Source of the DNA: Treponemataceae bacterium | Lineage (GTDB): Bacteria; Spirochaetota; Spirochaetia; Treponematales; Rectinemataceae | Assembly (NCBI GenBank): GCA_963678065.2 | Contig: CAXXVZ010000005.1 | Coordinates: 64,001-128,000 of the forward strand | Length of the DNA stretch: 64,000 nucleotides | Direction: 5' to 3' | Shown: positions 27,990 to 41,837 of the stretch, in pieces | Layout of the letters: the number at the start of each line of letters is the position of its first letter | How positions within the stretch are numbered: the stretch's first letter is position 1 | Notes under the pieces: model-generated | What the model saw: only the letters and a program-made list of their open reading frames with translations | Told to the model about the DNA's origin: nothing | Database searches by the model: none | Translations under genes and position numbers: made by a program

Positions 27990-29336
27990 ATGTCCCCCCT
28001 CGTCATGAAATTCGGCGGCACCTCGGTAGGCGACGCCTCGCGCATCGAACAGGTCGGAACGATAGTGCGCGCCAACACCAATGGCGGCGTCCTCGTCGTC
28101 GTCTCTGCGATGGGAGGCGTGACCAACATGCTGTTCGACGCGGCCAGAACAGCTCTCGCAGGCGAGATAACTCGCTCCCTCGAGATGCGCGACGCCATCC
28201 GGGAACGTCATTACGCGGCCGCCCGTACGCTCGGCACAGGACTCACTGACAGTCTGGCCGCGACCATCACGGCCATCACCGACGAACTCGGCACCTATCT
28301 CCAGGGTATCGGCCTTCTGCGCGAGCTTTCGGAGCGCAGCATGGACACTGTCGCGTCAATCGGAGAGCGGCTTTCGGGCATCCTCGTCGCGCACGGCCTC
28401 GGCGTCCCCTGCGTCGACGCCCGTCTCGTCATGCGCACGGATTCCCGCTTCGGGCAGGCGAGGCCGCAGCCGGAGACCATCCGCGAACTCGCCACGCGCC
28501 ACTTCGCACCCCTCCTCGGCGCGGGGAAAATCCTCGTAACCCAAGGCTACATCGGATCGGATGGCTCCGGCACAACGACGACCCTCGGACGCGGCGGATC
28601 CGACTACTCCGCCAGCCTCTTCGGGGCGGCGCTGGACGCGGCCGAAATCCAGATTTGGACCGACGTCGAGGGAGTCCTCACCTGCGACCCGCGCGTCGTG
28701 CCGCAGGCCCATCCTGTCGAGATACTCGGCTATGAGGAGGCGGCGGAACTCGCGGCATACGGCGCCAAGGTTCTCCATCCGGCCACCATCAAACCCGCTG
28801 TGGAGGCAGGCATCCCGGTCACTGTGCGCAACACGATGCTTCCCGAAGGCCGCTACACGACGATCAGGGCTGGTGCCTCGAGCGGGCTGCCCGTCACGGC
28901 CCTCGCCGTCCGAAAAGGCATCGCCATCATCAATCTCCGCCAGGAGACCATGATGGACCAGTCAGGCTTCCTGACCCAGCTCTTTGATGTGTTCGGCTCG
29001 CGCGGCACGAGCGTCGACCTCGTTTCCACCTCGGAGGTCTGTGTCTCCGTCACAGTCGACATGGGCGCGCCCCTTGACCTCCTCGAGAAAGATCTGTCGG
29101 CTCTCGGCTCGGTGGAGATCGCGAGGGACAGGGCCGTCGTCGCCCTTGTCGGGGAGCGCCTGCGCCAGACTCCGGCCGTCCTCGCGACCGCTTTCACGGC
29201 CCTGGGCGACATCGGCGTCGAGATGATTTCCATGGGCGCCAACGAGATCAACCTGAGCCTCGTCATGAAGTCGGACAATTCGGGAGAGGCGCTCCGCAGG
29301 CTCCACGCGGCCTTCTTCGAGGGAGGGAAGGAATGA
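27990..29336 (+). CDS. lysC: Aspartate kinase
   Basis: MKFGGTSV, VVVSAM, TLGRGGSDYSA and IWTDVEG; ACT domains. Confidence 0.95.
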   Translation: MSPLVMKFGGTSVGDASRIEQVGTIVRANTNGGVLVVVSAMGGVTNMLFDAARTALAGEITRSLEMRDAIRERHYAAARTLGTGLTDSLAATITAITDELGTYLQGIGLLRELSERSMDTVASIGERLSGILVAHGLGVPCVDARLVMRTDSRFGQARPQPETIRELATRHFAPLLGAGKILVTQGYIGSDGSGTTTTLGRGGSDYSASLFGAALDAAEIQIWTDVEGVLTCDPRVVPQAHPVEILGYEEAAELAAYGAKVLHPATIKPAVEAGIPVTVRNTMLPEGRYTTIRAGASSGLPVTALAVRKGIAIINLRQETMMDQSGFLTQLFDVFGSRGTSVDLVSTSEVCVSVTVDMGAPLDLLEKDLSALGSVEIARDRAVVALVGERLRQTPAVLATAFTALGDIGVEMISMGANEINLSLVMKSDNSGEALRRLHAAFFEGGKE

Positions 29337-30184
29337 AAATAGGCATATTCGGACGCGGCAAGCTCGGAAGAGCCGTCGCGTCGCAGATAGAATCTGCGGC
29401 GGAGATCGAGGCCGTGGCGGCAGCCGCGAAGGCCCGCCTTTCTGCGGTATCGGCTGCATCGCATGCCCCGGCCGGAATTACGACCGAAACGGAGACGGCC
29501 GACATCCCCGTCCTCGAGTGGATCATCGACCAGGGCGAGGAACCGGGAGGGCCAGTCGATGTCGCCCTGGACGCGAGCGCGGCGGGGGCCGTCAGGTCGC
29601 ACCTCGAGTGGGCCCTCGCGACGGGCACGAACCTCGTCATCGGGACGACGGGCTGGAAGATCGACGGGCTCGCAGGGCTCGTCGGGGACAGGATCGGCCT
29701 CCTCGTCTCCCCCAACTTCAGCCTGGGCGTCGCCCTGACCAAACGGCTGGCGCGGGCCCTCGGCGAATACGCGGCGATCACCCCCGACGCCGATCTCGCC
29801 GTGATCGAGAAACACCACAGCCGCAAGGCCGACGCGCCGAGCGGCACGGCGAAGGCCCTCATCTCGGCTCTGCAGGAGGGATGCCCCCGCATGGACGGCT
29901 ACCTCCTCGGCCAGGCTGCGCCCGGCAAAATCTCCGTCGGTGTCGTGCGCGCCGGCTATGAGGTCGGCTACCACGAAGTCCTCCTCGACTCGGAGTACGA
30001 GACCATCTCGATAATCCACCAGGCTCGCGGACGCGAAGTATTCGCGCGCGGCGCCCTCAGGGCTCTCCTGTGGATGAAGGGCCGGAAAGGATTCTACGAC
30101 ATCGACGACCTCGCGGCCGATCTCCTCGGTCCCGGACCGGCGGACGGCAACCTGCACTCGCGACGACATGAAAAGGGAGACTGA
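29333..30184 (+). CDS. dapB: 4-hydroxy-tetrahydrodipicolinate reductase
   Basis: VIGTTGW, SPNFSLG and EKHHSRKADAPSGTA. Confidence 0.92.
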   Translation: MKIGIFGRGKLGRAVASQIESAAEIEAVAAAAKARLSAVSAASHAPAGITTETETADIPVLEWIIDQGEEPGGPVDVALDASAAGAVRSHLEWALATGTNLVIGTTGWKIDGLAGLVGDRIGLLVSPNFSLGVALTKRLARALGEYAAITPDADLAVIEKHHSRKADAPSGTAKALISALQEGCPRMDGYLLGQAAPGKISVGVVRAGYEVGYHEVLLDSEYETISIIHQARGREVFARGALRALLWMKGRKGFYDIDDLAADLLGPGPADGNLHSRRHEKGD

Positions 30185-30185
30185 C

Positions 30186-31106
30186 ATGGCAAGCGCATCG
30201 TTCATCCAGGGATTGGGAATCGCGATCGCGACCCCCTTCACCGCCTCGGGCGAAGTCGACTACCGGGCCTTCCGGAGCCTCGTCGACCACACGACGGGAG
30301 CGGTCGATTTTTCAGGCGAGTCCGGCGGGGTCGATTTCCTCGTCGTCCTCGGATCCACGGGCGAGGCGGCGACCATCCTCGACGCCGAACGCAGGAAGCT
30401 CATCGAGACAGCCCGTGAAGCTGCAGGGACAGTGCCGATCATCGTCGGGACGGGGACAAACGCGACTGCCCGCACTGTCGAACTTACGAAAGAAGCCGTA
30501 GCGGAGGGGGCGGGCGGCGTCCTCGTCGTGACGCCATTCTACAACAAGCCGACAGCAGAGGGGCTCGTGGCGCATTTTTCGGCGGCGGCCGAAGCCGCGG
30601 GAGGCGCCCCCGTCGTCGCCTACAACGTGCCCGGGAGAACCGGGCTCAACATGACGCCCGCCATCATGAATCGCCTCTGGAAGATCCCCGGGGTCGATGC
30701 CCTGAAAGAATCCTCGGGCAACCTGGCCCAGATCGGCGAGATCCTCCGGACCATGCCGGAAGGGAAGGTCCTTCTTTCAGGCGACGACGCTCTCGCCCTC
30801 CCGGCCATCGCCCTCGGCGCGGAAGGCCTCATCAGCGTTGTCGGCAATATCCTGCCGAAGAGGATGAAGGCCATGGTCGACGCGGCTCGCGCCGGCCGCA
30901 GGGCGGAGGCGGCCGCGCTGCACGCGGCACTGCTCCCCTACATGGACGCCCTTTTCCTGGAATCCAACCCCATCCCGCTCAAGACAGCCCTCGAGATAGC
31001 CGGCATCTGCGGCGGGGAACTCAGATTGCCACTCACCCGCCCCTGTGCCGCGACACGCGCGCGGCTCGAGGAACTCTTCGCTCCCCTCTTCCGGAGGCAA
31101 ACATGA
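30186..31106 (+). CDS. dapA: 4-hydroxy-tetrahydrodipicolinate synthase
   Basis: LGSTGE, TPFYNKP, YNVPGRTG, LKESSG and ESNPIP. Confidence 0.95.
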   Translation: MASASFIQGLGIAIATPFTASGEVDYRAFRSLVDHTTGAVDFSGESGGVDFLVVLGSTGEAATILDAERRKLIETAREAAGTVPIIVGTGTNATARTVELTKEAVAEGAGGVLVVTPFYNKPTAEGLVAHFSAAAEAAGGAPVVAYNVPGRTGLNMTPAIMNRLWKIPGVDALKESSGNLAQIGEILRTMPEGKVLLSGDDALALPAIALGAEGLISVVGNILPKRMKAMVDAARAGRRAEAAALHAALLPYMDALFLESNPIPLKTALEIAGICGGELRLPLTRPCAATRARLEELFAPLFRRQT

Positions 31107-31936
31107 ATTCTTCCGATTTCACAACGACAGTCGCCCGACTGGAAGCTTTTTACGCCCGGGACTTTGAAGCTATCCTCGCAGATCCTGACTGGGTGGAAAC
31201 ACATGAGGCCCTGCTCGAAGCCCTGGAGTCGGGTATACTCGCGACCGTAGCGCAGGCCGGGGACGGAAACTGGAGCGCGGTCTCATGGGTAAAGAAGGCC
31301 ATATTGGCCGGCTTCAGGCGCGGCGGCATAGCCGAGCACGCCTGGCCGGGCGGCGCCTTCGACCGGCCGGCCTTCCCTCCCCGCTGGTTCGACGCGGAGG
31401 ACGCCGTGAGGCTCGTGCCGGGCGGAAGTTCGGCCAGGCGCGGTGCCTACATCGCGCCTGGCGTCGTCGTCATGCCGCCTTCCTATATCAATGTGGGGGC
31501 CTGGATCGGGAGAGGCACCATGGTAGACAGCCACGTCCTCGTCGGCTCCTGCGCCCATGTCGGCGAGAAAGTCCACCTCTCGGCGGGCGTCCAGGTTGGC
31601 GGCGTTCTGGAGCCTCCCCAGGCATGTCCCGTCGTCGTCGAGGACGGCGCCTTCATCGGCGCGCTGTGCGGACTCTTCGAGGGCGTCGTCGTGCGCGAGC
31701 GCGCGGTCCTCGCGCCCGGCGTCATTCTGACCGCGGGAACCCGGATCTTCGACCTCGTCGGCGGACGGGAGCTGAGGGGAGAGGTGCCGGCCGGAGCCGT
31801 CGTCGTGACCGGAAGCCGCCCCGCTTCGGGAGACTTCGCGCGCCAGGCGGGGATATCCCTCAATGTGCCCTGTATCGTAAAATACCGGGATTCGAAGACG
31901 GACGCTGCCGTCGTCCTGGAAGAAGCGCTGCGCTAG
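31103..31936 (+). CDS. dapD: Tetrahydrodipicolinate N-succinyltransferase
   Basis: WVKKAIL, PSYINVGA, VGSCA and GGVLEPPQA; hexapeptide repeats. Confidence 0.92.
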   Translation: MNSSDFTTTVARLEAFYARDFEAILADPDWVETHEALLEALESGILATVAQAGDGNWSAVSWVKKAILAGFRRGGIAEHAWPGGAFDRPAFPPRWFDAEDAVRLVPGGSSARRGAYIAPGVVVMPPSYINVGAWIGRGTMVDSHVLVGSCAHVGEKVHLSAGVQVGGVLEPPQACPVVVEDGAFIGALCGLFEGVVVRERAVLAPGVILTAGTRIFDLVGGRELRGEVPAGAVVVTGSRPASGDFARQAGISLNVPCIVKYRDSKTDAAVVLEEALR

Positions 31937-33826: not shown

Positions 33827-34621
33827 TTAGGCGTAGCTGTGAAGTCCCGAGAGGAGGAAGTTCACGCCGAAGAAGGTGAAGACCGTGCACAAAAAACCGA
33901 TGACGGAAACCCAGGCGGGGAGCAGTCCGGTCTTTCGCTTGATGAAGCGGATGTGCAGATAGAAGGTGTAGATGAGCCAGGTGACGAGGGCCCAGGTTTC
34001 CTTCGGATCCCAGGACCACCAGACTCCCCAGGCCTGCTCGGCCCAGATGGCGCCGAAGACCAGGGCCCCCGCCGTGAAGATCGGGAAACCGACAGCGATG
34101 GCCGTGTAGGTTATGCGATCGAAATCGGGGCGCTTCCTTTCATCCCGCGTGAAGATATAGGCCAGGGAGGCGACGAACCCGGCCACGAAGAAGGCCTCTC
34201 CGACAAAGGAGAGCGCCACGTGGGCGACGAGCCAGCCGGAGCGCAGAGCGGGGATCGGCGCGAGGAGATCCTTGGGAGCGAGAGGTGAGCTCGCGACAGC
34301 GAGGAGAACGAGGGCGACGACAGTCGCGCCGAACTGCACGAAGGGCAGGAAAATAAAGCGCTTCTGTGTCCGGTAAGCGAATCCCATCAGGCAGACGAAA
34401 CCCGAATAGAAGACCAGGGACTCGAATGTGCCGGTCAGGGCGGGGAATCCGATCCTGAACGAGCGGTCGGCGATGACGGCAGCGAGAAGCGCGGCAGCGC
34501 CGAGTAGGAGAAAACGGGATGCAGGCTCTCTCTCCCCTCCTTCCTTGCGGAAGAGGAATACCGCCTGGACTGCGGCAGAGGCGAGTATCAGCAGGATTGC
34601 GATGGTCGGCAGGCTGTTCAT
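33827..34621 (-). CDS. ccsA: Cytochrome c biogenesis protein CcsA/ResC (system II)
   Basis: GAIWAEQAWGVWWSWDPKETW (WWD domain) and C-terminal GLHSYA. Confidence 0.95.
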   Translation of the reverse strand: MNSLPTIAILLILASAAVQAVFLFRKEGGEREPASRFLLLGAAALLAAVIADRSFRIGFPALTGTFESLVFYSGFVCLMGFAYRTQKRFIFLPFVQFGATVVALVLLAVASSPLAPKDLLAPIPALRSGWLVAHVALSFVGEAFFVAGFVASLAYIFTRDERKRPDFDRITYTAIAVGFPIFTAGALVFGAIWAEQAWGVWWSWDPKETWALVTWLIYTFYLHIRFIKRKTGLLPAWVSVIGFLCTVFTFFGVNFLLSGLHSYA

Positions 34622-35553
34622 GGCTTCATGTCTCCGAGTTTCTGGATGAAGGTGAGAAAGAGTCCCACCACGACGAAGATGAGGGCGGCGAGAATGACAG
34701 GATACCCGGGATCGACGACGGCGTGGAGGCCGGTGATATCCGAGTCTTTCATCCCGGAGATGAGGAAGGGCCCGGCCCTGTCTCCGGCAGCGACGCGGAG
34801 GACATCGGTCTTTTCGCCCGATTTGAGGCGGATCACGGCCTTTCCCTTTCCGTCGTCGGCGGCCATGAAGTAGAGACTGGAGCCTCCGTCGGAGAACTCA
34901 CCGCCCTGGTCGAGCAGATGCTCCTTCCCGGCGGAATCCGCGACCGAGAGGGCGCGCTTCGCGCTATGCGAGAACTGGTAGAGGCTCATGGTGCCGAGCT
35001 TCAGGGGATGGTTGACGCGGATGGCGTAGCCTTCCTTCTCGATCTTCCCGTCCTTCATGACGCTCACGGTGGAAGTCCAATCCTTGGGCCGCCCGTCGTC
35101 GTAGGTCTCGTAGCTGAAGTCCGTCAACTCGAGGACGCGTGACTCGGGCATCTCGACCTTGTCGCCGACGGAGAGGCTCACCGACCCTTCCTGTTTGCCG
35201 GAGAAAGAGACGACGGAGCCGATCACGAGGATCATGAGGCCGAGGTGGAGAATGTCGGGACCGTGCCTGCGTCGACCTTTTTTCCGCAATTCGCGTAAAA
35301 GCCTGTCGATGGTGCAGACAGAGAGGTTGACGAAGAAGGCAAGGACCGGAATCAGGAAGAGGATCGAGGTGAAAAAGCGGGAAAATCCCGTCTGCACGAT
35401 GAGTTCGCCGAGGAGCCTTCCGTACTTTGCGGTGTAGGCCCCGGCATCCAGTCCCTGGGGAATGAGGGTCGCGAGGATTCCTGTCAAGGCGAGCCAGGCG
35501 ATGAGGAAGACAGCGAGCTTCATCGATTTGAGGGATTTGAAGAGTCGTTCCAC
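34618..35553 (-). CDS. resB: Cytochrome c biogenesis protein ResB/CcsB
   Basis: SMKLAV, TLIPQ, NLSVCT, LHLG, VNHPL and DPGYPV; GTG start assumed. Confidence 0.88.
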   Translation of the reverse strand: MERLFKSLKSMKLAVFLIAWLALTGILATLIPQGLDAGAYTAKYGRLLGELIVQTGFSRFFTSILFLIPVLAFFVNLSVCTIDRLLRELRKKGRRRHGPDILHLGLMILVIGSVVSFSGKQEGSVSLSVGDKVEMPESRVLELTDFSYETYDDGRPKDWTSTVSVMKDGKIEKEGYAIRVNHPLKLGTMSLYQFSHSAKRALSVADSAGKEHLLDQGGEFSDGGSSLYFMAADDGKGKAVIRLKSGEKTDVLRVAAGDRAGPFLISGMKDSDITGLHAVVDPGYPVILAALIFVVVGLFLTFIQKLGDMKP

Positions 35554-35667
35554 GGATTTCCGCCTTGAGGAATCGAGAGATCGTCGGTGCAAAAATGATA
35601 GTCGCCGCCTCATGGACCTGTCAACAACAATTCGATGATAAAGATAGAATTTTATCAACATATCGAG

Positions 35668-35696
35668 TTTACAATATTATATCACGGGTGTATGAT
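35668..35696 (+). promoter_or_regulatory. Sigma70-type promoter of the cytochrome operon
   Basis: TTTACA-N17-TATGAT; inverted repeat TGATAAA-N8-TTTATCA just upstream (35636-35657). Confidence 0.65.
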
Positions 35697-35728
35697 TCAG
35701 ATATAAATCTATACAAAGGAGGTATGCC

Positions 35729-36946
35729 ATGAAACGGATGACTGCGCTTGCAGTCTTCGCGCTCGCGGGTCTGGCGGCTTACGCCGCCGAATCGACCTGC
35801 GTCACCTGCCACACAGACAGCGAGACCATGAAATCGCTCTTCGTGCCGCCGGCGATGAGCGCGTCCGAAGGCGAGGGCTGAGCGGGAACTCCTCCCCCGG
35901 TCCGGGCGGATGAACTTTACCTGGGATTCGTCGTCGACAAGTCCCTTCTGGAAACCGATCCACATCTCAAAAATGACTGCACGTTCTGCCACAAAGGCGA
36001 CCCGACGGCTTCCGACAGGAGCCTCGCGCACGCGGGCGTGAACAAGCGTCCCTCCGACGACCTTGCGACCTGCGGGACATGTCACGAGGAGACAGTCAAA
36101 ACCTACAAACTCTCCCTCCACTACACGACAGCGGGCATGAAGAGCGGGGTGAATCCCCGGTTCTCCGGCGCGGAAGCCTCGGTCTACGATCAGAAGGTCT
36201 TCGAGCAGTCCTGTCGCTCCTGCCACGCGTCATGCGGCGACTGTCACGTCAAGAGCCCCACCATCTCCGGCGTCGATCTCGGTCTCATGGCCGGACACAA
36301 ATTTGTAAAGAAAGACGAGTCGAAGACCTGCGCGCTCTGCCACGGCGGACGCGTCTACCCCGAGTTCACGGGCGAATACGGCGGCAACGCCGATGTCCAC
36401 TACCAAAAAGGCATGTCCTGCACGGACTGCCACTCAGAGTCCGAAATTCATGCCAGCTCCGGAGCACAGAGCGACAGGCGCGCCGTTTCCGACAAGCCGT
36501 CCTGCGTGAAGTGCCACGCTCCCGGGACGGAGAAGACCGAAAAGGCGAGAACCGCGCACGCCGACCACGGCGATATGGTCTCCTGTTCCGCCTGCCACAG
36601 CTCGGCGGAGTACCGCGGCTGTGCATCCTGCCATCTCGGCGAAGGCGCTACATCGAGCCCCATGTTCATGCTCGGCGACAATCCGAGGAAACCCGGCCAG
36701 CTCACCACGCTGCGCCTCGTTCCCACGGTCCGCGACACGTTCAAGAAGGTCGGTATCGTCCAGGAAAACTTCGATTCGATGCCCAATCTCTGGGATACCG
36801 TTCCGCACAACACGCGCAAGCGCACCGAGCGCACGCGCGACTGCTCTGTCTGCCACTCGGAGAAGCGGAACGTCCTCACCGAGGAAACGCTCCCGAAGGG
36901 CGGATCCGAGGCCAACAAGAAACTCATTTTCGAGTTCATGTATTGA
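35729..36946 (+). CDS. Secreted 11-heme c-type cytochrome, predicted selenoprotein (Sec51), 405 aa
   Basis: AAGGAGG RBS, signal peptide, CVTCH, then in-frame TGA at 35879-35881 after GEG. The same frame continues without stops into ORF 36038..36946; 11 CxxCH motifs in total. Confidence 0.88.
35882..35912 (+). promoter_or_regulatory. Candidate bacterial SECIS hairpin
   Basis: TCCTCCCCCGGTCCGGGCGGA can fold with a small G-containing apical loop about 17-20 nt after the TGA. Confidence 0.6.
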
Positions 36947-36965: not shown

Positions 36966-37844
36966 ATGAAGAAGCTGTTTGCCATCCTCGTGCTCGCCGC
37001 CTGCCTCGCGCCGGCTGCCTTCGCAAGAGACATCGATCCCGTAGTCTCGGCCGCGTGGCTGGAGTCCAACCTCGCCAACCCCAACCTCGTCGTCATGGAC
37101 GTCCGCTCGGTGGAGAACTACAAGGCCGGCCACATTCCCGGCGCCGTCAATGTCATAGGGGCCAGTCTCTATGTGAAGAAGGGCGAGATCAACAACGAGG
37201 TGCCCGAGATGGATGAGCTCTCGGATACCCTCTCCGCGGCCGGAGTCAAGGCCGACTCCTGGATCGTCGTCGTCGAAACCGACGGCTCCCGCCTCGCCTG
37301 GTCCACGCGCGTCGCCTGGACTCTGAAATACGTCGGGATCGAGAACGTCGCCTTCCTCGACGGCGGCTACGCGGCCTGGACCAAGGCCGCCAAGCCCGTC
37401 TCCAAGGACGCGGTCACGAAGTCAGGCGGCTACACCGCCAAGGCGGTTCCCGCCTACTTCGCGGACAAGGCCCAGGTCCTTGCGGCAAAAGACGCTCAGA
37501 TCGTCGATGCGCGCACCTACGATACCTACTTCGGACTCGTCAGGCAGTCCTTCGTCGCTCAGGCCGGACACTTCCCCGGCGCGTATTCTCTCCCCTACAC
37601 CTGGATCCTCAACGCCGACAACATGGTCAAGTCCAAGGCCGACCTGGCCGCCTACGCCGCGAAGCTCGGACTCGACCCCTCCATCGAGACCATCGTCTAC
37701 TGCGACTCGGGCGTCCTGTGCACCGCCTGGTGGTATGCCTTCTCCGAGATACTCGGCTGGAAGAATGTCAGGAGCTTCGACGGATCCTCCCAGGTTCTCA
37801 CCGCCGATCCATCAGTCAAGTATGTGGCTCTGACCTGGCGCTGA
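36966..37844 (+). CDS. Secreted tandem-domain rhodanese/sulfurtransferase; may extend to 37928 by TGA read-through
   Basis: Signal peptide, GHIPGA, LDGGY, VDART, GHFPGA and active-site YCDSG. Confidence 0.92.
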   Translation: MKKLFAILVLAACLAPAAFARDIDPVVSAAWLESNLANPNLVVMDVRSVENYKAGHIPGAVNVIGASLYVKKGEINNEVPEMDELSDTLSAAGVKADSWIVVVETDGSRLAWSTRVAWTLKYVGIENVAFLDGGYAAWTKAAKPVSKDAVTKSGGYTAKAVPAYFADKAQVLAAKDAQIVDARTYDTYFGLVRQSFVAQAGHFPGAYSLPYTWILNADNMVKSKADLAAYAAKLGLDPSIETIVYCDSGVLCTAWWYAFSEILGWKNVRSFDGSSQVLTADPSVKYVALTWR

Positions 37845-37928
37845 GCCCGGACGGCGACGGTCCGGTACTGCTACTCCTGTCATCACGCCGAGACCCTCGT
37901 CAACTGCAACAAGTGCCACAAGGAGTGA
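37845..37928 (+). other. In-frame 27-codon two-heme segment ARTATVRYCYSCHHAETLVNCNKCHKE
   Basis: Two CxxCH motifs directly after the rhodanese TGA; no ATG or RBS of its own. Confidence 0.7.
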
Positions 37929-38100: not shown

Positions 38101-38189
38101 GGAAGCAGACGGGGTCTGGTGGCTCCCGCGGTCTTCAAAACCGTTGGCCGCGCCTTGCGCGGCGGCAGGTCCGATTCCTGCCTCTTCCG
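38101..38189 (+). tRNA. selC: tRNA-Sec (UCA)
   Basis: GGAAG 5' end, 6-bp D-stem with 4-nt loop, anticodon loop CTTCAAA, long variable arm, T-arm GCAGG-TCCGATT-CCTGC; adjacent to selA. Confidence 0.95.
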
Positions 38190-38223: not shown

Positions 38224-39672
38224 ATGACAGAACCATCCAGAGATATCCGTTTGCCCCAGATCGGCAGGATTCTCGAGAATCCGGATATCGCCGCGTTTTT
38301 TCCCCTCATCTCGCGTCCTTTGACCGCAAAGTCGGTGGCCGAAACGGTGGCGCGCATCCGCGCCTCAGCCCTGGCAGGCTCCGTTTCAGTCTCCGATACC
38401 GAAGTCATCGGACGCTGCGTCGACGACTGCCGCGCCCTCGCATCCAGACGACTCAGGCCTGTGCTCAACGCGACGGGCATCCTCCTTCACACGAACCTCG
38501 GCCGTTCGCCTTTGAGCGAGGGCGCGTGGGAGAAAGCCCGGCGGATAAATACAGGCTACTCGAACCTCGAGTTCGACCTCGGGGCGGGAGAACGGGGAAG
38601 GCGCGGGGGTCTCGCGCCTGAATTGGCCGCCCTTCTTTCGGGAGCCGAATCCGCCCTCATCGTCAACAACAACGCGGCCGCAGTGCTCCTCGCGCTCGGA
38701 ACTCTCGCCGCGGGTCGCGAAGTCATCGTCTCACGAGGGGAGCAGGTTCAGATCGGCGGCGGGTTCCGCATCCCGGAGATCCTCGCCCTGTCCGGCGCGA
38801 AACTCGTCGAGGTGGGAACGACGAATGTCACCACGGTCGACGACTACCTTCAGGCCCTCGGGCCGGAGACTGCCGCCGTCCTCGTGGTTCACAGCTCCAA
38901 CTTCGCGATCCGCGGATTCACCAGGAAGGCGGCGCTCGCCGACTTGGTCGGGGCGCTCCCCTCCCGCGTTCCCGTCATCGCCGATCAGGGATCGGGATGC
39001 ACCACAGAGCGCATCGAAGGCGAGATCCCGGTTTCGCGGTACATCGCGGACGGAGCAGCCCTCGTCTGTTTTTCCGGGGACAAGCTCGCGGGCGGACCCC
39101 AGGCGGGCATAATCGCGGGCCGCAGCGACCTCGTCGCGGCCTGCGCGCGTCATCCGCTCATGCGGGCGTTCCGACCCGGGAAAACCATCCTGTCGCTTCT
39201 GGAGCAGAGACTCGTCGAGATTCTCTCCGGAGTTCCCGCTCCGGCTTCGCCGCGGGATGCGGCCGGGCTCGAGACCTTCGGCGCGGCGATCCTCGCCGGA
39301 TTGCCAGGGGGAACGGCGCGCCTCGTCCCCTCTGTCGCGTCCACGGGAGGCGGAACGAGTCCGGACGAAGGATTTCCTTCGCGCGCGCTCGAACTGCTTC
39401 CACCGCTCGCCGCGCAGCGCCTTCTCGAAGCATTCCGGCAGGGCGATCCACCGCTCGTCGCGTGCGTGCGTGCGGGAAAGATTCGGCTCGACCTCGCGTC
39501 GCTGCGCGGCGAAGACCCGCGGCTCGTCGCACAGCTCATCATGGAGGCCCTCGCCTCCTGCGACAGCGATGCCCCATCGGGGAAGCGCGCCGACTCCGCC
39601 TGTTTCGACGTCTGTCATTCTTCTCCGCTCAGGGTTGGCGGCCCGGCGTCGGGTCCGGTCACAGGAGACTGA
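38224..39672 (+). CDS. selA: L-seryl-tRNA(Sec) selenium transferase
   Basis: VLNATGILLHTNLGRSPL, YSNLEFDL, VNNNAAAV, IGGGFRIP, EVGTTN and FSGDKL.GGPQAG. Confidence 0.95.
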   Translation: MTEPSRDIRLPQIGRILENPDIAAFFPLISRPLTAKSVAETVARIRASALAGSVSVSDTEVIGRCVDDCRALASRRLRPVLNATGILLHTNLGRSPLSEGAWEKARRINTGYSNLEFDLGAGERGRRGGLAPELAALLSGAESALIVNNNAAAVLLALGTLAAGREVIVSRGEQVQIGGGFRIPEILALSGAKLVEVGTTNVTTVDDYLQALGPETAAVLVVHSSNFAIRGFTRKAALADLVGALPSRVPVIADQGSGCTTERIEGEIPVSRYIADGAALVCFSGDKLAGGPQAGIIAGRSDLVAACARHPLMRAFRPGKTILSLLEQRLVEILSGVPAPASPRDAAGLETFGAAILAGLPGGTARLVPSVASTGGGTSPDEGFPSRALELLPPLAAQRLLEAFRQGDPPLVACVRAGKIRLDLASLRGEDPRLVAQLIMEALASCDSDAPSGKRADSACFDVCHSSPLRVGGPASGPVTGD

Positions 39673-39676
39673 GAGG

Positions 39677-41290
39677 ATGCCTGTCGTCGGGACGAGCGGC
39701 CATGTGGATCACGGCAAGACGACCCTCATCGCAGCCCTGACCGGCGTCGACACAGACCGCTTGCCCGAGGAAAAAGCCCGCGGCATGACCACGGATCTCG
39801 GTTTCGCCCATTTTGCAGACTCGCAGGGCAATCCCGTCGGCATCATCGATGTGCCGGGCCACGAACGGTACATGCGCAACATGTCCGCCGGAGCTTTCGG
39901 CATCGATGGCGCCATCCTCGTCGTCGCCGCGAACGACGGCTGGATGGAACAGACGGGGCGACATCTCCAGATTCTCGAGGCTAACAAGGTTCCAATCCTC
40001 GCTGTCGCCCTGACGAAGGTCGACCTCGTCGCTCCCGACCGCGTGAAGGAAGTCGGCGAGGATATCGCGCGCAGGTTGCATCGTTCGCCCTCGGGGTCGA
40101 TTCCGGGTCCTGCGCAGCCCTCACCGGCGGGAGTAGAGAAGGAACTGCGGCGCCCGGCCGTATGTCCGGTCGACGCCGTGCGTGGCCTGGGTCTCGATGA
40201 ACTGAAATCAGCCGTTCTCGGCGGTCTCTCCCGTCTCGGGCCGCGCCCTTTCCCGACGGGTCCCTTGCTCTTCATCGACCGGGTCTTCCCGCTGAAGGGG
40301 ATTGGCGTTGTCGTCGCGGGGAGTCTTCGGGGCGGTCAGCTGAGGCAGGACGATGAACTCTTCCTCTATCCCTCCGGAGAGAAGCTGAACCTGCGGGGCC
40401 TTCAGGCATACGGACTGCCGGTCAGAGAGGCGCCCGAAGGCTCGCGGGTCGCGCTGGCCCTCTCGCGCCCCCGCGCGGAACCGCGCCGGGGTGACTGCGT
40501 CGCTTCCGCAAAGGCCGGCATCGTGGCAGCGCACTCCGTCTTCTTGCGGACCCGCCCTCCTCAAGGCGAGATGCCGGGTGCCGGCCGCCTGCGCGCCGGC
40601 ATGGAAGTCGAACTGTCAGCGGGCACCGCGAACAGGATCGCGACACTCTACCCATCGCGCGTTCCCGGCGTCCTCCATCTCGCGTGGACAGGAGAGCTCG
40701 CGCTGTACCGCGATGAGACTGTCATCGTATTGCGACATGGAGGCGCCGATATTCTCGCCTCGGGAAACATCGCGGCATTCGGAGGCGACTCGGCTCCCGG
40801 ACGTCGCCGGATCGAAGAGGAGCTGAGACAGAGCCTTCTGCCAACCTCTCCAGAGCTCTCTGTTCCGGCAAAGGGCACGAAGCTGTCCCCGGCAAGGCCT
40901 CTCCAGCGGGAGGTCCCTCCCCTCGCCCCATCGGCCCTCCAGGTACTCGGGCAGCTTCGCTCGGCCGGGGAACCGGGCATCGACGCTGAGACACGGCCTG
41001 TGCCCGGACTTCGCGCGGATCTTTCGGCGCTCTGCGCGCAAAACCTTGCCCTGAGCCTCGATGCGGGCCTGTTCATGGAAACTGGCCGCTACCACATCCT
41101 GACGGCGGCCATCCTCAGAGGGCGCGGGCCAGGCAGCGGCTTCGGCATCAAGGAAGCGAAAGACGCCACCTCGCTGTCGAGAAAATGGATCATTCCGCTC
41201 CTCAATCGCATGGAGAGGGACGGCTATGTCAAACGCGCGGGCGACACGAGAATCGTGACCGGGAAAGCGCCAGGACCTGAATCGGCCTGA
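39677..41290 (+). CDS. selB: Selenocysteine-specific elongation factor
   Basis: GHVDHGKT, TDRLPEEKARGMTTDLGF, DVPGHERY, TKVD and C-terminal winged helix SRKWIIPLL. Confidence 0.93.
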   Translation: MPVVGTSGHVDHGKTTLIAALTGVDTDRLPEEKARGMTTDLGFAHFADSQGNPVGIIDVPGHERYMRNMSAGAFGIDGAILVVAANDGWMEQTGRHLQILEANKVPILAVALTKVDLVAPDRVKEVGEDIARRLHRSPSGSIPGPAQPSPAGVEKELRRPAVCPVDAVRGLGLDELKSAVLGGLSRLGPRPFPTGPLLFIDRVFPLKGIGVVVAGSLRGGQLRQDDELFLYPSGEKLNLRGLQAYGLPVREAPEGSRVALALSRPRAEPRRGDCVASAKAGIVAAHSVFLRTRPPQGEMPGAGRLRAGMEVELSAGTANRIATLYPSRVPGVLHLAWTGELALYRDETVIVLRHGGADILASGNIAAFGGDSAPGRRRIEEELRQSLLPTSPELSVPAKGTKLSPARPLQREVPPLAPSALQVLGQLRSAGEPGIDAETRPVPGLRADLSALCAQNLALSLDAGLFMETGRYHILTAAILRGRGPGSGFGIKEAKDATSLSRKWIIPLLNRMERDGYVKRAGDTRIVTGKAPGPESA

Positions 41291-41432: not shown

Positions 41433-41837
41433 ATGAAAAGCATGAAATTTTTGCCAGGCCTCATCGCGGTCGCGTTCATCTCCGCAGGTTTCCCGGGATG
41501 CGCGAAACTCGCGGAGATGAAGGCGATGACGGACAGCATCGGCACTCTCACCATCGGTCGCGTCGATGTTGCGGCTGTGCGGGACGGCGACTACGAAGGG
41601 TCTCAGGACAATGGAGCCGTGACAGCCAGAGTGGCCGTCACGGTGCGGGGAGGAAAAATCACGGCGATAAAGGTGCTGGATCACAGGCACGGGCCGGGAA
41701 AAAACCACGACGCCGGAGCCATATCCGACAAGGTCGTGGCGGAACAGAGTCTTCAGGTCGACGCGATCGCCGGGGCCACCGCCTCGAGCAAAGTAGTGCT
41801 CAAGGCCATCGAAAACGCGCTGACGAAAGGCATATAG
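41433..41837 (+). CDS. FMN-binding domain lipoprotein
   Basis: Signal ending in PGC; DGDYEG, VTVRGGKI, and VDAIAGAT resembling the flavinylation motif. Confidence 0.85.
   Translation: MKSMKFLPGLIAVAFISAGFPGCAKLAEMKAMTDSIGTLTIGRVDVAAVRDGDYEGSQDNGAVTARVAVTVRGGKITAIKVLDHRHGPGKNHDAGAISDKVVAEQSLQVDAIAGATASSKVVLKAIENALTKGI

Follow-up and report, generated by a model that had tools for sequence, protein, structure and literature searches.

An in-frame UGA, almost certainly read as selenocysteine, in a widespread family of 11-heme cytochromes

Is a spirochaete gene with a stop codon inside its reading frame a broken gene, or does it encode a multiheme cytochrome with selenocysteine (Sec), and what would such a protein do? 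The question arises from a window of 64,000 nucleotides (contig CAXXVZ010000005.1 of the Treponemataceae genome GCA_963678065.2, positions 64,001 to 128,000). Here, a frame of 405 codons opens with an ATG that has AAGGAGGT just ahead of it and closes with a TGA at 36944-36946. Its sole internal stop is a TGA at codon 51, in the context SEGEG-U-AGTPPP (Table 1). In a mechanical ORF list, the protein begins only at 36038, as the initial annotation had pointed out.

That annotation claimed a single hidden 11-heme cytochrome interrupted by the TGA, and our results bear this out. The frame contains 11 CxxCH motifs (at C24, 84, 115, 162, 169, 201, 231, 259, 286, 298 and 372), one on the N-terminal side of the conserved TGA and ten on the C-terminal side. 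All 22 cysteines lie in these motifs and none outside them, and nine histidines lie outside the motifs. Residues 1-19 (MKR, a hydrophobic stretch and AYA/A) form a signal peptide predicted by eye; the piece downstream of the TGA has none.

Table 1. Features of the window, with positions counted from its first nucleotide
Feature	Position	Strand	Basis
CcsA/CcsB-type heme-attachment protein	33827..34621	-	TIGR03144 above cut-off; genome's sole PF01578 match
ResB/Ccs1-type cytochrome c biogenesis protein, divergent	34618..35661	-	PF05140
Divergent sigma-70-like promoter matches	35595..35696	.	Minus strand 11/12, plus strand 10/12
11-heme c-type cytochrome, predicted selenoprotein (405 aa, Sec51)	35729..36946	+	Frame, family alignment; AlphaFold2 mean pLDDT 88.8
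In-frame TGA, almost certainly read as Sec; family motif G-x-G-U-[GA]-G	35879..35881	+	166/170 spanning loci
SECIS-like hairpin, ~9-12 nt past UGA, loop region starting with G	35890..35913	+	Fold; family covariation
Heme 4 motif CRSCH (C162-H166), predicted catalytic heme	36212..36226	+	Inferred from profile alignment on OTR heme II
Heme 6 motif and GGRVYPE with Arg208, predicted lining of heme 4 distal pocket	36329..36364	+	Covariation with Sec/Cys51
Tandem-domain rhodanese, signal-peptide-like N-terminus, active-site Cys246 (YCDSG)	36966..37844	+	Pfam PF00581
tRNA-Sec (selC), anticodon UCA	38101..38188	+	Rfam RF01852, 63.5 bits; ARAGORN
selA, L-seryl-tRNA(Sec) selenium transferase	38224..39672	+	TIGR00474, 425 bits, above cut-off
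selB, Sec-specific elongation factor	39677..41290	+	TIGR00475, 231 bits (cut-off 242, just under); SelB winged-helix Pfam

Decoding of the in-frame UGA

TGA stands at this column in 166 of the 170 related loci that span the site, reaching down to ~40% identity, where the 170 include duplicates and near kin and do not count as independent events. TAA or TAG was found at the column in none of them. The tally is based on 176 loci, after 11 own-genome, SelD or duplicate loci were dropped, and six of the 176 were truncated; the TGA was recognised by pattern in 162 loci and by eye in four (L050, L135, L143 and L186). The four spanning loci without TGA have Arg (L005), a shortened loop (L073) or Trp in a shorter loop (L090), or are broken (L051). 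In contrast to the constant internal TGA, the terminal stop of the family genes varies between TAG, TAA and TGA. L073 is a second copy in a genome (G063) that also has a TGA copy; this paralogue has all 11 heme motifs, lacks both Sec and the Arg208 discussed below, and may be a non-catalytic electron-transfer version.

The family occurs in many anaerobic bacteria, and its named carriers include syntrophs (Syntrophales, Syntrophorhabdaceae) and spirochaetes. Among 51 GTDB loci, titled nearly all Syntrophales, Smithella, Syntrophorhabdaceae or Deltaproteobacteria, 45 have TGA, one has CGA, one is broken and four are truncated. The gene was found in 12 of 60 relatives, every copy with one TGA within the match. 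In the phylum of Syntrophus, 44 of 401 genomes gave matches, with TGA in 45 of 46 matches and a truncated exception, and in the window's own phylum 5 of 401 did, all with TGA. One locus (L040) comes from Syntrophus buswellii DM-2, which is in culture. The same G-x-G-U-[GA]-G motif was seen in the best 80 of 546 confirmed metagenome stretches from a distant clade, at 39-45% identity to the clade query. The nearest database matches are titled Rectinemataceae, Treponema sp. and Spirochaetaceae. Most of the best 120 matches span 66-86% of the query protein, and two RefSeq entries of the family (PMC11492766, supplement file 3) start downstream of the Sec site.

A sequencing error at the TGA was rejected, given its conservation across the family and a public sequencing-run contig that is identical across 35719-36053, although this run may be the source sample itself. 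A strain contig with 38 differences also covers the gene, and none of the differences listed falls at the TGA. Small shares of RNA runs were searched as well; two gave short near-identical contigs at the 3' end of the gene or in the rhodanese gene, too weak to speak of expression.

Besides TGA, the column holds Cys, with both flanks conserved. Cys was found in 13 of 42 distant full-length proteins (e.g. P0164, GEG-C-GG); these were spotted by eye, and the alignment column bore them out. The remaining proteins have other residues there or lack the loop, in a set that is biased against Sec because full-length Sec forms are invisible in protein databases; three Trp entries may be code-4 translations. 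The initial annotation regarded a non-Cys sense codon at this position as a sign of nonsense mutation or sequencing error. This objection holds to the extent that a minority of homologues does have R, A, S, W, Y or H. It fails for the close clade, whose non-Cys copies look degenerate or repurposed rather than like evidence of nonsense mutation, because their otherwise near-invariant HGGRVYPE segment is altered as well.

The hairpin of the window by itself was no more stable upon folding than shuffled sequences. Across clade B, 92.8% of the cells were paired (n = 81 unique sequences), compared with 34-51% in slid controls and a shuffle mean of 81.8%. Across clade A the value was 88.3% (n = 67 sequences), compared with 33-69% and 86.3%, respectively. 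None of 1000 shuffles reached the observed value in either clade; three loci that were out of register or mis-assigned were set aside in this test. Compensatory pairing 3' of the UGA is hence present in both clades, as in a SECIS-like stem-loop. The Pro codon at +6 is CCG in 81 of 81 clade-B sequences. At four loci (L148, L149, L172 and L175) the two stem arms have changed places compared with most clade-B sequences, which turns the peptide APLEP into EPLAP; here, RNA structure appears to drive the protein sequence.

The tRNA-Sec, selA and selB genes lie 1.2-4.3 kb downstream of the cytochrome, past the rhodanese, while selD is located on another contig of the same genome. With all four components, a hairpin past the UGA and Cys homologues, the system resembles that of other bacterial selenoproteins made by SelA, SelB, SelC and SelD. 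Among relatives, selA scored above cut-off in 11 of 12 carriers versus 7 of 48 non-carriers (kin that are not independent), and in nine carriers it shares a contig with the gene, within ~7 kb. According to clustering, selD directly follows the rhodanese in 5 of the 12 relatives' loci, one of which was confirmed (spirochaete set L057, L058, L061, L062, L064 and L065); in some relatives the gene is thus accompanied by the complete Sec pathway. At 4 of 52 loci, the gene has a seleno-YedE transporter and an SclA-like cysteine desulfurase as neighbours (Smithellaceae loci L035:3264-5843, L027, L031 and L037).

The Sec read-through proposed in the initial annotation is supported because the TGA and both its flanks are conserved, Cys homologues exist, the hairpin covaries, and selC, selA and selB are adjacent. 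As judged from sequence comparison, UGA codon 51 is almost certainly read as Sec. A true stop, which would leave a mono-heme peptide of 50 aa plus a 10-heme protein of its own, or else a pseudogene, would agree with database gene calls that cut the protein at this point and with the few homologues that have non-Cys residues at the column, but is extremely improbable in view of the lack of TAA and TAG at the 170 loci, the unchanged frame across the TGA, the Cys homologues that form a single ORF, the covarying hairpin and the downstream piece without signal peptide. The common frame, the single-ORF homologues and the signal-less downstream piece equally contradict two separate genes with their own starts, which the initial annotation had also considered. 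Reading of TGA as Trp was rejected: TGA terminates both the cytochrome and the rhodanese, and the sole tRNA(UCA) found is the tRNA-Sec.

Elsewhere in the genome, family searches found no in-frame stops in molybdopterin enzymes, peroxiredoxins, rhodaneses or SelD, and no match to FlpD. A crude genome-wide search for further Sec codons returned 1519 candidates, swamped by antisense shadow frames.

Heme core and the surroundings of residue 51

The AlphaFold2 model of the cytochrome was computed with Sec as Cys and without hemes; the Sec loop is its least confident part (pLDDT ~60). Among 48,161 representatives, the top fold match was octaheme tetrathionate reductase (OTR) of Shewanella oneidensis (PDB 1SP3; Z 9.3, rmsd 4.5, 261 aligned residues, 19% identity), followed by a match with Z 4.8; with a second search included, no other match had a Z value above 5.1. 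The Foldseek E-value against OTR was 0.014. This best structural match, moderate in score, extends to the order of the hemes: OTR hemes I-VII are collinear with hemes 3-9 of the window protein, the DVH distal-His motif included. In the profile alignment, heme I corresponds to heme 3, heme II to heme 4 and hemes IV-VII to hemes 6-9, whereas heme III, which a second HMMER stretch places on heme 4, was assigned to heme 5 because of the spacing. In OTR, the stretch that follows heme IV presumably lines the active site; its counterpart in the cytochrome is G206-E212.

In OTR, the catalytic heme is heme II, which has a Lys ligand and is accompanied by a conserved Cys (bioRxiv 10.1101/2023.04.20.537704; PMC9250108). 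Unlike the eight-heme OTR, the window protein has 11 motifs and thus three extra hemes, at 19% identity, and it lacks conserved equivalents of Lys56 and Cys64 between hemes 3 and 4. TIGR04315, the OTR model, is not among its matches, and 19 of 116 family members match this model weakly (best E 5.9e-10).

All nine spare His are conserved at 90% or more, and because the hemes number 11, two of them lack a His distal ligand. Heme 4 would be the catalytic heme, because it is aligned with the catalytic heme II of OTR and nine conserved spare His serve 11 hemes.

Besides residue 51 itself, residue 208 was the strongest covarying position when four Trp-type rows were left out: Arg or Lys was present in 32 of 34 Sec/Cys representatives versus 8 of 25 others. 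In the close clade, 64 of 68 Sec forms had HGGRVYPE unaltered, compared with none of five non-Sec forms, and changes numbered 9 of 35 inside this segment versus 13 of 300 elsewhere, counts that rest on a quick tree. Among phylogenetically independent pairs, a mean of 3.2 of 6 went in the same direction and 0.0 in the opposite one (median p 0.25), which is not significant. The role suggested for Sec in the initial annotation, a heme ligand or catalytic arm, is consistent with these data, because two hemes have no His as distal ligand and because Arg208 is lost together with Sec/Cys.

Gene neighbourhood and proposed function

The rhodanese next to the cytochrome has an active-site Cys that all 46 aligned neighbours share. 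A gene of the rhodanese cluster occurs at 73 of 92 loci in one set and 30 of 52 in the other, many of the loci being short, and in P0149 and P0170 the rhodanese is fused to the cytochrome. The cytochrome is the sole open frame with at least three CxxCH motifs in the genome (99.94% complete, 6.72% contamination). The promoter search between the divergent genes returned six sites versus a shuffle mean of 0.6, all of them consensus matches only. Clade-specific neighbours elsewhere include a HybA-like Fe-S protein (28 of 92 loci), an FdnI-like cytochrome b (14 of 92), Ccm genes and a CsoR-like repressor, and in some clades other multihemes, one with a cytochrome b561, lie beside the gene. No quinone-linked partner gene is adjacent to the cytochrome in the window's genome.

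Several other elements of the window deserve mention. Beyond the TGA stop of the rhodanese, 27 in-frame codons with two CxxCH motifs run to another TGA (37842-37928, plus strand). No relative shows such a CxxCH tail; the last rhodanese residue is the same in them, and the stop codon is often TAA or TAG. A second Sec at this stop was rejected as unconserved, and the tail is probably the remnant of a small cytochrome gene; less probably, it is read through in this lineage alone. The gene directly past selB (41433-41837, plus strand) encodes a small protein of the FMN-binding type (PF04205), which has a lipoprotein-like N-terminus and could exchange electrons with the cytochrome outside the cytoplasm. 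Further upstream on the plus strand, a lysine riboswitch (Rfam RF00168; 27541-27732) precedes genes that by eye resemble aspartokinase, dapB, dapA and dapD (27990-31936), an ordinary arrangement.

By analogy, the cytochrome is likely an exported persulfide/polysulfide reductase that acts with the neighbouring rhodanese; we infer its substrate, the direction of its reaction and the position of Sec in the fold. On balance, we lean towards a single 11-heme cytochrome in which a flexible loop places Sec51 at heme 4, next to Arg208, to reduce persulfide or polysulfide that the rhodanese delivers. The Gly-rich loop would carry Sec51 into the pocket of heme 4 beside Arg208, where it would replace the Cys of OTR as nucleophile. 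Arg208 would hold the anionic sulfur substrate, the rhodanese would supply the persulfide, and the selenolate would attack an S-S bond, either in polysulfide or in the Cys-persulfide of the rhodanese. The resulting Se-S adduct would then be cleaved by electrons arriving through the heme chain, and HS- would be set free. The chain may, in some clades, be linked to the quinone pool through the adjacent Fe-S and cytochrome b genes.

A bolder proposal is that Sec51 forms a direct, reversible bond to the iron of catalytic heme 4, as a natural His/Sec-ligated heme enzyme, and that free-living spirochaetes have a self-contained cassette (heme attachment, cytochrome, rhodanese and Sec decoding) dedicated to this enzyme and conferring sulfur respiration. 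We regard this combination as rather doubtful.

Possibly, the same active site works in the oxidative direction, taking sulfane sulfur or sulfide and feeding the heme chain in the manner of TsdA and SoxAX, or takes part in sulfur disproportionation. The sequence has nothing that fixes the direction, the MccSep mechanism relates to the reverse of the TsdA and SoxAX reaction (PMC13510729), and a flavocytochrome c (18 of 52 loci) and a small cytochrome c3 (15 of 52) encoded upstream of the gene could accept electrons. As in TsdA and SoxAX, which have a His/Cys-ligated heme, a chalcogen residue would by analogy act at a heme on sulfur substrates (PMC13510729), but neither protein is among the fold or family matches of the window protein. 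The oxidative direction is nevertheless unlikely: OTR and MccSep have been characterised as reductases, and from general knowledge, an oxidative sulfur sink is less obvious in carriers that are named as anaerobes (Syntrophales, Syntrophorhabdaceae and spirochaetes).

A selenium substrate such as selenite or polyselenide, with the cassette detoxifying selenium or supplying selenide for Sec synthesis and the rhodanese as selenium carrier, is quite unlikely. It would suit the adjacent selC, selA and selB, the selD that follows the rhodanese in relatives and the seleno-YedE and desulfurase genes at the few loci mentioned above, and MccSep also reduces selenite (PMC13510729). Yet, co-transfer as a cassette explains sel genes beside a selenoprotein, and an 11-heme chain with quinone-linked Fe-S and cytochrome b neighbours would better fit a flux on the scale of respiration.

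We give still less credence to Sec51 as a mere axial ligand that tunes one heme (heme 4 or one of hemes 1-3) for electron transfer without S-S chemistry. Two hemes do lack a His partner, and some homologues have other potential ligands (His, Tyr or Met) near the column. However, homologues without the loop retain all heme motifs and the spare His, and a rhodanese with its catalytic Cys is conserved adjacent or fused to the cytochrome.

Relation to known systems and significance

MccSep, or ExtKL (GSU2937-2936), of Geobacter sulfurreducens is a polysulfide reductase that uses Sec, heme and Arg (PMC13510729; NCBIfam NF040886). One of its five hemes is ligated by His and Cys239, and its Sec325 is located in a C-terminal Ig-like domain (PMC13510729). 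It belongs to a family first predicted in PMC1914089 and is the sole characterised multiheme selenoenzyme found in the parts of the literature searched. Like MccSep, the window protein is a multiheme c-type cytochrome destined for export whose gene is interrupted by an in-frame UGA; in both, Sec follows Gly on a mobile loop, a nearby Arg is implicated, and the context is one of sulfur chemistry. In contrast to the five hemes and C-terminal Sec325 of MccSep, it has 11 hemes and Sec51 in an N-terminal loop, and it has no spare Cys where MccSep has its heme-ligating Cys239.

The match between the family profile and MccSep is limited to one heme motif of 23 residues (E 0.005). NF040886 is not among the NCBIfam matches of the window protein at E 0.1, MccSep is not among the fold-search matches listed, and phmmer found no match to the window protein in the PDB. 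As far as the alignments reach, the family is not homologous to MccSep beyond this motif. By analogy, it may work like MccSep on an OTR-like heme core.

A 2026 compilation of 119 prokaryotic selenoprotein families (PMC13188914, Table 1) has no multiheme family with G-x-G-U-[GA]-G; the cytochromes that it lists are ExtKL, the GSU2204 family and an OTR-family Sec form annotated in GenBank. No NCBIfam model scored above cut-off for the window protein. The text of BSepDB (PMC13326102) names no cytochrome family, and its supplement, as far as searched, is a genome list without family names. PMC11492766 mentions an uncharacterised 11-heme periplasmic cluster, which may or may not be the present family. 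We found no description of the family in the paper listings searched.

The selenoprotein family is real, widespread and mis-annotated, and it is a member of neither the MccSep nor the OTR family. It likely represents an uncatalogued extracytoplasmic enzyme that breaks sulfur-sulfur bonds. Our results add a widespread selenoprotein family that gene callers cut to a 10-heme fragment without signal peptide. If Sec does ligate the iron, this would be a heme coordination that was not found for any natural protein in the literature searched. Beside MccSep, the family points to a second, independently built route that combines Sec and heme for sulfur chemistry, on an OTR-like fold, in syntrophs and free-living spirochaetes that are not usually credited with sulfur respiration.
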